A stretch of DNA of 10,506 nucleotides from a virus (IMGVR_UViG_2619619131_000001), one strand, 5' to 3'; numbered from the stretch's first letter, positions 2,581-4,581 are shown. The notes: generated by a model not told the origin, from the sequence alone. Numbers and translations: made by a program.

Positions 2581-4581
2581 ATGACTGAATCAGCCATCCT
2601 CACAGCGTATAACTCCATCGACGCGGCATCTGTTGCCCTTGGTCGTCCCTGTCTGACGCTGCCCGAACGTGAGCATTTTCGGGCTGAGCGCGATGTTGCC
2701 ACTCGCAACCTTGTCACGCTTTCCCGCCAGTATCGTGATGAGGTCGGGGTACTGTCTTCACAGCTTGCCCTGCCACGTAACACGCAGGTTGACCGTGTGA
2801 TTTACGGAATTAACTGCACGGATTTATCTCTCGCTGACAGGGGTAAGGCTGCCGGACTGGTTTCACAGTTTGGCTCGTTTTCCTTCACCGTGGCACACGC
2901 TTTCTGCCGTCTTGTTTATCAGCTCGGTGTGAAAAATGCGCTGATGGCGCTTGAGTCCGCGCACCGTTTTGCTTTCTTCAATCAGGACGGAGACCCTTAT
3001 GAATTCTCGCTTTTCTGCACTGATGAACAGCTTGCTGAGGTGGCTGATTCGGTTGTTCGTGACTGCCTTGTTTCTCGGGCCATTTATAGTGATGTTGCAG
3101 AACAGCACCTTCTCAATGTAATGGCCTATTTTCAGGCCATCTCCGGCTTTGATTTCGCGCCCGTTTATGCCACTTATCATGAGCGTTACGGCGATGAGGG
3201 ATTGCTTAAACGTCTGACTGATTTGGCTTTTGTCACCCGTTTCCTGCGGGTTGTCCGTGACCAGCGGGTCAATGAGGTCTGCCGCATGCTCGGCATACTG
3301 AACCGCAACGCGCCTTATATTTCCGACTGGCACCGCGACCTCTTTGCTGTCCGCAGTAAACGCGTGAAAAATTATCTCCGGTCCTCCGGCGTCTTTGATG
3401 CCTTTAATGAGCTGGTCTGTACGCTGGAAGATGCGCATAACGCCTCAGTCTCGAATCCGAAAAACCGGATTGCTGAACTCTGCGTTCGTGGAAAGGCCGT
3501 CTGTGAACTGTCCGAAGATATGGGGCTGTCCGGCTACTTCATCGTGCTCACCACGCCGTCACGTTTTCACCCGACGACCAGTTTTAAGGTTGCCGGAAAA
3601 TGGCATTCTCGTCCGAATAAAAAATGGTGGGAAGCAGGTTGCCCGACCGTTAAGGATTCGCACGCCTGGCTGAATACCGTCTGGCGTCGGGTCTGCCGCA
3701 GGCTGGATAAAGCCGGTATTCAGATACCCGGTCTGCGCACGGTCGAGCCTCATGCTGACGGTACAACGCACTGGAATTTCCTGATTTACTGCAATCCCCA
3801 TGAGAGCGCAACGGTGCTGGCCATTTTCCGTGAAGAGGCCATGCGCGATGAGCCGGATGAAAAGGGGGCGAAAGAGCACCGTATTTGTATTGAGGCTATT
3901 GACCCTGAAAAGGGTGATGGTTTCCGTTACATCGTGAAGTACATCACCAAAATGGCGGGTGATGTCAGTGCGGATGGTATTACCGCCCTGAATGACCGTT
4001 ATTCTGCCCGTTCATTCTGTGATGCCGTCAGCCGTGCCGCCTGCTGGCAGAAAGCAACGCGCCTTCGCCTGTTCCAGTTCTTTGGCGTTCCCTCCGTTAC
4101 GGCTTACCGCCAGATGCGCAGCTTCCGCGCACCGCTTGAGGCGCATCATATCAATATGCAGCAGTTCACGCCGCAGCAGGTCGCCGAACTGGAAGCCATC
4201 CGCATGGCCTGTGATGCAGGCGATTTCCGGACCTATATCCTGCTGAACGGCGGTTTCTTCTGTTCTGAACGTCTGCTTCGCCCGTTTTACGTTCAGCCGC
4301 AGGAAGGTGGTAAACCCCGTTTTAACCGTTACGGTGAACCCTGCGCACCGGTGATTTCCGGTTTCATGTTTGGCCCCGTTCCGGTCATAACCCGTTTTAT
4401 GGGCTGTGTTGTCCGCCGTATGACCCCCGCAGAAAAAATCCGCGCAGAGGAAGTCAGAAGCGGCAGCAGCTATGAATCTGTGTTTATTTCGTCGGCTTCA
4501 CGACACCGCACGACGCGCTCCCGCGCGGCGGGTGGGGGCGGCGAAGCCGACCCTTGGACTTGTGACAATAACTGTCCCTGA
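2581..4581 (+). CDS. Rolling-circle replication initiator, HUH endonuclease superfamily (phiX174 gpA / P2 GpA-like)
   Basis: 666-aa ORF from ATG 2581 with GGAG at 2573-2576. Motif 1-like FIVLTTP; motif 2-like [15 protein letters not shown] (nt ~3748-3786); motif 3 [11 protein letters not shown] with Tyr450 and Tyr454 (codons 3928-3930 and 3940-3942) in the YxxKY arrangement typical of two-tyrosine Rep proteins. Confidence 0.9.

Follow-up and report, generated by a model that had tools for sequence, protein, structure and literature searches.

The gene A protein of phage phiX174 initiates rolling-circle replication with two tyrosines, and its origin is found within the gene that encodes it. 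In phage P2, the replication origin is also located within gene A, and it is conserved in related replication proteins (Reps) (PMC3986222). In another group of viruses, the crystal structure of the duck circovirus Rep has Mn2+ bound by Glu44, His52 and Gln54 of a so-called HUQ motif (PMC9973303), which is widespread among the Reps of circoviruses and other CRESS-DNA viruses, in which a circle of single-stranded DNA encodes a Rep (PMC10288648). Here, we have analysed a stretch of viral DNA of 10,506 nucleotides (IMGVR_UViG_2619619131_000001, hereafter the window), and more precisely its rep gene, which encodes a protein with asparagine in place of the second histidine of the HUH motif (histidine, hydrophobic residue, histidine). 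We call this variant HUN.

The window Rep and the A proteins of phages P2 and 186 (Peduoviridae) have a homologous nuclease core, with 22-24% identity over the whole alignment and 27-30% in local tblastn matches, the same motif 1 and the same EPHxDG...HW cluster; the tyrosines of P2 A are also numbered 450 and 454, by coincidence. The likeness extends to a P2-type origin core, putative in the window, which is situated within the gene or at its end, with a GC hairpin before it. However, P2 A and 186 A read HWH and EPHHDG where the window Rep reads HWN and EPHADG, and the latter has a different N-terminal part of 200 residues and is shorter (666 residues, versus 761 and 694 in P2 A and 186 A). 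The carrier is a filamentous phage with single-stranded DNA (ssDNA) in one case and a tailed phage with double-stranded DNA (dsDNA) in the other. The putative origin of the window is found in the last nine codons of rep, whereas in P2 and 186 it is 257-431 nt before the stop codon, and the hairpin upstream of it is much longer in the window.

Among deposited phage genomes, the best match to the window Rep is the Rep (orf698) of VFJ, a filamentous phage of Vibrio, with 29.8% identity over 84% of the query; this protein is similar to orf716 of fs2 (Inoviridae, Saetivirus). VFJ is an inovirus with the same gene order, rep and then the ssDNA-binding protein gene, and its origin layout is similar, with a long hairpin and then CCTTGGACTCGTGTCACTAACTGT spanning the rep stop codon. 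Its Rep differs in that both histidines are kept (HNH at the HUH position), as is the PHH doublet. The phiX174 A protein serves here as a mechanistic model; in Pfam, the window protein matches Phage_GPA only.

Family assignment of the window Rep

The open reading frame (ORF) of rep starts with the ATG at 2581 and ends with the stop codon at 4579-4581, and its product has 666 residues. By profile hidden Markov model search, residues 206-457 match the Pfam family PF05840 (Phage_GPA) with 166.4 bits, for a cut-off of 31.4 (E = 1.1e-48), and the protein also matches phrog_91, 'nicking at origin of replication' (E = 2e-128). Phage_GPA is the sole Pfam family matched at E <= 0.01, and Rep is not placed in the Ff-type gpII family. 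These matches, together with the alignment of Y450 and Y454 with P2 A, agree with a previous sequence-only reading, which had proposed a two-tyrosine Rep of 666 residues, and they support the assignment of the protein to the P2 A-type (Phage_GPA) initiators. A search of NCBIfam gave no match for Rep. Sequence searches of the PDB, with the single protein or with a profile of 41 sequences, returned designed helical repeats only and nothing relevant; in these searches no Phage_GPA member with a solved structure was found from which the ligand set could be fixed.

The nearest database relative of Rep, P0001, is 98% identical, and its cluster at 90% identity holds 2,063 member sequences. In addition, the same gene, of 2001 nt, is labelled 'replication endonuclease' by the Prokaryotic Genome Annotation Pipeline (PGAP) in 40 of 5,426 complete E. 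coli genomes. When rep was compared with relatives at 98% amino acid identity, we counted 40-48 synonymous and 15-17 non-synonymous differences, and the ratio of non-synonymous to synonymous substitution rates (dN/dS) was 0.10-0.12. We also observed an in-frame internal ATG, with GAGG just before it, at window position 3286 (rep codon 236), which could in principle yield a shorter nuclease-only product in the manner of gpX of Ff or A* of phiX174; the methionine at this codon is not clearly kept in relatives.

An asparagine at the HUH position

Rep was first aligned with P2 A, 186 A, the Reps of HP2 and VFJ and 17 database homologues. In this alignment E389, P390, H391, D393, H397, Y450, Y454 and K457 are invariant. 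Two independent MAFFT alignments put the HWN of Rep (397-399; codons CAC TGG AAT, nt 3769-3777) in the same columns as the HWH of P2 A (H399-W-H401) and of 186 A. More broadly, the motif 2 segment of Rep occupies the columns of EPH-H-DGTP-HWH in its relatives, and the P2 A segment aligned to it is EPHHDGTPHWHMMLF. The His-hydrophobic-His pair that defines the HUH superfamily is therefore incomplete, with H397 present and the second histidine replaced by N399, and there is no H-x-H tripeptide anywhere in the 666 residues. The sequence-only reading had given HWN instead of HWH, provided that its alignment was right, and had proposed an alignment with the P2 A family as the check, an intact HUH motif elsewhere being what would contradict it. 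This alignment confirmed the HWN column for column and revealed no such motif. We thus rejected a misaligned HUH motif, since the HWN columns are flanked by the invariant residues E389, P390, H391 and D393 and include the invariant H397, and no H-x-H exists elsewhere.

The two other motifs are of the expected type. In motif 1, VLTTPSRFH (residues 322-330) corresponds to u-T-L-T-x-P-S-+-F-H, and its columns are invariant or nearly so both in smaller family alignments and in the alignment of 240 sequences described below. In motif 3, the Y-x-x-K-Y pattern is present as Y450-I-V-K-Y454, in register with Y450 and Y454 of P2 A.

None of H397, W398 and N399 varies within a clade of 37 relatives (40-98% identity) that spans Escherichia, Salmonella, Morganella, Providencia and Xenorhabdus. 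To look beyond this clade, the nuclease core was used in a HMMER search, exhaustive over 1.84 billion representatives, which gave 1,903 family members; 235 family proteins were then aligned with the window Rep and four reference Reps, 240 sequences in all. At column 399 we found histidine in 189 and asparagine in 48 of the 237 sequences that have a residue there, and nothing else. Column 391 holds histidine in 228 sequences, asparagine in seven and glutamine in four, while column 392, the second histidine of 'PHH', varies freely. No variation is seen at H397, Y450 and Y454; Y450, Y454 and K457 are the same in 237 of the 237 sequences with residues at those columns. Two proteins, P0122 and P0171, have asparagine at both 391 and 399.

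Seven HWN proteins fall outside the clade of the window, and the nearest neighbours of each of them are HWH proteins, which implies that the switch between histidine and asparagine arose several times. The composition of column 399 indicates, at the level of sequence, that this position accepts only side chains that can coordinate a metal, and the data support the view that Asn399 is a ligand variant that is tolerated and selected, rather than an oddity of one gene. The sequence-only reading had described an unusual substitution at a metal ligand: histidine is indeed replaced by asparagine, but the change is not so unusual, being fixed in a whole clade and present in about one fifth of the aligned family.

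By analogy, the closest parallel to HUN is the HUQ motif of Reps from circoviruses and other Arfiviricetes CRESS-DNA viruses, in which a carboxamide likewise replaces the second histidine and the catalytic Mn2+ is still bound (PMC9973303; PMC10288648). These Reps differ from the window protein in having one tyrosine (Y1), a fused superfamily 3 (SF3) helicase and glutamine instead of asparagine, and no sequence relationship was seen. In the literature searched, coverage of which was incomplete, we found no description of a HUN variant, which apparently has not been described so far.

A model of Rep was built with AlphaFold2 on an alignment of 41 sequences and has high confidence scores (predicted local distance difference test, pLDDT, 89; predicted template modelling score, pTM, 0.86). 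Its N-terminal half is helical, its core is of the alpha/beta type, and a small beta domain stands at the C-terminus. In this model two consecutive strands, 384-390 and 396-404, are separated by a turn of five residues; E389 is at the end of the first strand with H391 just past it, H397 and N399 are on the second strand, and Y450 and Y454 are on a predicted helix (448-459).

A putative plus-strand origin at the 3' end of rep

The sequence-only reading had also guessed that the origin might be inside the gene. In agreement with this, a core of the P2/186 type, CCTTGGACTTGTGACAATAACTGT, occurs once in the window, within the last nine codons of rep. It differs from the origin region of 186 by four mismatches in 23 nt and from that of P2 by five, and in 300 Markov shuffles of the window nothing closer than six mismatches to the 186/P2-type core was obtained. 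In the GenBank record of 186, a rep_origin is annotated inside gene A 'by similarity with P2', at the G after CTCG in CTCG-GAGTTCTGTCAATAACTGT; at the corresponding place P2 reads CCTCGGAGTCCTGTCAATAACTGT. From this annotation and from PMC3986222, we predict by analogy that the + strand is nicked between G4556 and G4557; a literature search for the P2 origin sequence itself yielded nothing of relevance.

The same core, with 0-3 mismatches, was found in ten relatives, in different reading frames or at intergenic positions. It lies 8 nt past the rep stop codon in an E. coli relative (L012, 64% identity) and inside rep in another one (L013), crosses the stop codon in another reading frame in Salmonella diarizonae (L006), and, in Providencia (L014) and Xenorhabdus (L007, L009, L010, L011), is found between genes at 183-198 nt downstream of rep. 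In the Haemophilus phage HP2 it is inside rep, and in VFJ across the stop codon, as mentioned above. A scan of a genome collection with the clade profile gave six loci only, which served for the origin analysis and are too few for statistics. Relatives thus do not share the place of the core with respect to the stop codon; they share a DNA element that lies at the 3' end of rep or just beyond it. As the core is kept in other frames or in intergenic DNA, its conservation is at the DNA level. The C-terminal tail of Rep, of which the codons overlap both the hairpin and the core, diverges across the clade, and the 'PW..NNC' signal in these otherwise unconserved and disordered C-termini would be a translation of origin DNA.

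Directly 5' of the core is a long imperfect hairpin with perfect outer arms of 9 nt, GTCGGCTTC and GAAGCCGAC. Folded as ssDNA, it has a predicted energy of -29.2 kcal/mol (z = -4.8), and none of 200 shuffles was as stable. All the inovirus relatives examined have a long hairpin at this place, with unrelated sequences and z values from -4.1 to -6.6; this includes relatives from E. coli, Salmonella, Providencia and Xenorhabdus as well as the Vibrio phage VFJ. In contrast, the GC hairpin found there in P2, 186 and HP2 is short. We propose, from these sequence comparisons, that the putative cognate origin consists of a P2-type core preceded by a hairpin, at the 3' end of rep.

Two rearrangements centred on the putative nick region were observed in Xenorhabdus. 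In X. hominickii (L008, about 6060-6090), a deletion in the prophage starts just 3' of CCTTGGACTCGGACTCG and reaches into the secretin gene, and in X. szentirmaii (L011, 6217-6246) the hexamer GGACTC is duplicated within the origin core.

The prophage around rep

The window starts with hipB (1-267) and hipA (up to 1589), according to ORF calls and to the hipBA annotation in E. coli TD225-C4. The dif-like site at the left prophage junction reads GGTGCGCATAA-TGTGACACGCG-TTATGTTGAAA; its left arm is the XerC arm of E. coli dif, and the rest matches the attP copy AGTGCGCATAATGTGACATGCGTTATGTTGAAA carried by unit-length phage scaffolds. The corresponding sites, with the phage attP copy, are at L015 1-33 and L016 1684-1716. 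The halves resembling Xer arms are 11 nt apart, versus 6 nt in dif. The junction was found by eye and by an arm-wise search, whereas a search for a canonical E. coli dif, with up to three mismatches allowed, gave no match. A GC-rich hairpin resembling a terminator directly follows the junction (about 1697-1735).

Downstream of the junction we observed a filamentous-phage gene set, almost all on the + strand: a small divergent regulator (1984-2199, - strand), an ORF of 81 residues, Rep, an ORF of 141 residues, small coat-like ORFs, g3p, a Zot/pI ATPase and a secretin, the gene of which runs past the end of the window. The Phage_Coat_A, Zot and Secretin domains (5664-7262, 7639-8850 and 9298-10506) are in the same order in relatives and make up an inovirus morphogenesis module, and a Phage_coatGP8 gene is present in the Providencia relative L014. 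The 141-residue ORF stands where inoviruses have the gene of their ssDNA-binding protein, and the gene following rep in VFJ is annotated as such; by its position, it may have the same function. Megablast of the prophage against deposited phage genomes gave no match.

In E. coli TD225-C4 (L005, NZ_CP035860.1, 3334-26355), the prophage is present by hipBA in at least three head-to-tail copies, with a period of 8,328 bp; the Zot gene of the first copy is split into two coding sequences. Tandem arrays have been reported for dif-integrating inoviruses such as YpfPhi (PMC4266046). A unit-length metagenomic scaffold of 8.7 kb, bounded by the attP arm, was also found. YpfPhi/CUS-1 and UPPhi have the same lifestyle, with integration at dif, an imperfect dif at the junctions and tandem copies (PMC4266046; PMC7307601), to which the dif/attP hybrid by hipA and the tandem copies seen here correspond. 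They are likened to the window prophage by lifestyle and not by sequence; no Yersinia name occurs among the Rep clusters sampled, and identity with YpfPhi/CUS-1 or UPPhi was not established. The coordinates of the features are collected in Table 1.

Table 1. Features of the rep region and of the left prophage junction (window coordinates)
Feature	Position	Strand	Remarks
Left prophage junction, dif/attP hybrid GGTGCGCATAATGTGACACGCGTTATGTTGAAA	1666..1698	+	downstream of hipA
rep gene	2581..4581	+	predicted 666-aa P2 A-type (Phage_GPA) rolling-circle replication initiator/nickase
Rep motif 1 region	3538..3570	+	aa 320-330; family-invariant T324, P326, S327, H330
Rep motif 2 region	3745..3789	+	aa 389-403; HUH position H397-W398-N399; E389, H391, D393, H397 retained
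Rep motif 3	3922..3951	+	aa 448-457; Tyr450 (nt 3928-3930), Tyr454 (nt 3940-3942), K457
C-terminal Rep tail, disordered, poorly conserved	4465..4578	+	aa 629-666; pLDDT <50; codons coincide with the putative origin DNA
Long imperfect hairpin	4491..4551	+	directly 5' of the putative origin core
Putative plus-strand origin core CCTTGGACTTGTGACAATAACTGT	4552..4575	+	codons 658-665 (PWTCDNNC), within last nine codons of rep
141-aa ORF directly after rep	4612..5037	+	phrog_30648, unknown function; similar-sized gene follows rep in relatives

Several parts of the prophage vary. The divergent regulator has 70 residues (phrog_2503) in the window and in TD225-C4, and is a 153-residue HTH_3 protein at L015 297-758 (- strand), on scaffolds with a Rep 98% identical to that of the window; most E. 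coli megablast matches start only at the start of rep. Taken together, these differing regulators and matches suggest that the immunity/regulatory module is mosaic. In L012 (545-1501) and L013 (419-1372), the Reps of which are 58-64% identical to that of the window, a transposase gene of the IS110 family (DEDD_Tnp_IS110) occupies the place directly upstream of rep that the small regulator and the 81-residue ORF hold in the window, suggesting a different integration module. The intergenic region 2230-2320 carries the palindromic elements GCATGCG/CGCATGC.

The gene of the g3p-like receptor-binding protein (5664-7262) varies in length, with 1,599 nt in the window, 1,320 nt in TD225-C4 and 1,386 nt in L015; in the window, a 39-nt tandem repeat (6342-6766; 10.9 copies, 91% matches) encodes its Gly/Ser linker. 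Between the Zot/pI and secretin genes, a direct repeat of 57 nt (8864-8920 and 9203-9259) is 93% identical, with its copies 339 nt apart. The gap between these genes is 447 nt in the window versus 176 nt in the full-length copy of TD225-C4, which suggests a small insertion or duplication.

Discussion

We consider it very likely that the gene is the functional rolling-circle initiator of a filamentous (Inoviridae) prophage, integrated at a dif-like site by hipBA, with a HUN variant of the motif and a P2-type origin at its 3' end. In the mechanism that we propose, Rep would bind the double-stranded replicative form and nick the plus strand, which is the coding one, at about CCTTG/GACT, whereby one of the tyrosines would take up the 5'-phosphotyrosyl link. 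The 3'-OH would be extended by a host polymerase with a helicase, and after one round the second tyrosine would cut the regenerated origin, so that the first linkage would be resolved and a circular plus strand released. The catalytic metal would be held by H397, by the carboxamide oxygen of N399 and by at least one of E389, H391 and D393. By analogy with HUQ in circovirus Reps, HUN may be a working variant of HUH. The phage looks active, given the tandem copies in TD225-C4 and the unit-length scaffold.

An active Rep could also do without N399 as a ligand, if the metal were held by H397, E389, H391 and D393 and if a small polar residue at the second position sufficed, for packing or for a hydrogen bond. 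The invariant candidate ligands beside the HUH strand (E389, H391, D393) are unusually many, and column 391 tolerates asparagine or glutamine, even together with asparagine at 399 in two proteins, which suggests redundancy in the site. However, a purely structural role should also admit serine, threonine, glutamine or aspartate, whereas column 399 has only histidine or asparagine in 237 sequences, and the residue at that position is a ligand in every solved HUH/HUQ enzyme cited (PMC9973303). We therefore regard a bystander role of N399 as improbable. The loss of one of the two eponymous histidines could otherwise mean that the nickase is inactive and that the prophage is a decaying or domesticated remnant, and one Xenorhabdus relative (L008) is clearly truncated. 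Against this, N399 is invariant across genera and the other catalytic residues are intact, dN/dS is about 0.1, the origin core and hairpin are conserved together, and tandem copies, unit-length scaffolds and a complete inovirus gene set are found. The invariance of N399 across the clade, the restriction of its column to two residues, the low dN/dS and the recurrence of HWN in unrelated branches exclude, in our opinion, the decay of a pseudogene, and an inactive Rep appears very improbable.

A different doubt concerns the putative origin, since the 24-mer at 4552-4575 might be kept for a functional C-terminal peptide, PWTCDNNC, as the 'PW..NNC' signal in the protein consensus of the family would suggest. 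But in Salmonella L006 the same DNA falls in a different frame, across the stop codon; it lies past the stop codon in L012 and is intergenic in Providencia and Xenorhabdus; the peptide region has a pLDDT below 50, and the homologous site of 186 is annotated as a replication origin. Conservation of this motif at the protein level was thus rejected, and we give this explanation hardly any credit. The preferred reading, a functional initiator with a HUN motif and its origin at the end of its own gene, can also be carried further. HUN Reps could form a functionally distinct subclass of the two-tyrosine (Y2) enzymes, in which the change from histidine to asparagine is an adaptive toggle and, as a separate point, replication modules might have been exchanged between P2-like phages and inoviruses; this seems unlikely to us. 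A carboxamide in place of imidazole might shift the metal preference, for example towards Mg2+, or the balance between cleavage and religation, which could be of use to filamentous prophages that integrate at dif and replicate chronically at a low level. If this were true, the repeated independent switches in Phage_GPA would represent the adaptive toggle, and the common core CCTTGGACT..TAACTGT of tailed P2-like phages and inoviruses would be a case of an initiator and origin module exchanged between dsDNA and ssDNA viruses.

The overall finding is modest: a normal P2 A-type initiator with a clade-wide and recurrent HUN variant. In practice the gene is ordinary: it is routinely annotated as a replication endonuclease and occurs in thousands of E. 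coli and Salmonella assemblies. The plus-strand origin of these enterobacterial filamentous prophages is now putatively placed within a few bases, and, being of the P2 type, it connects tailed P2-like phages with inoviruses at the level of their replication modules. The Phage_GPA family holds a sizeable conserved HUN lineage and scattered independent HUN members. Motif screens that demand H-U-H would miss or mis-score such Reps, as the HUQ motif caused the Replitron Reps to be overlooked (PMC10288648). The HUN lineage offers natural material on the part of the second histidine in catalysis and in the choice of the metal, and it is possibly a source of new orthogonal 'HUH-tag' enzymes.
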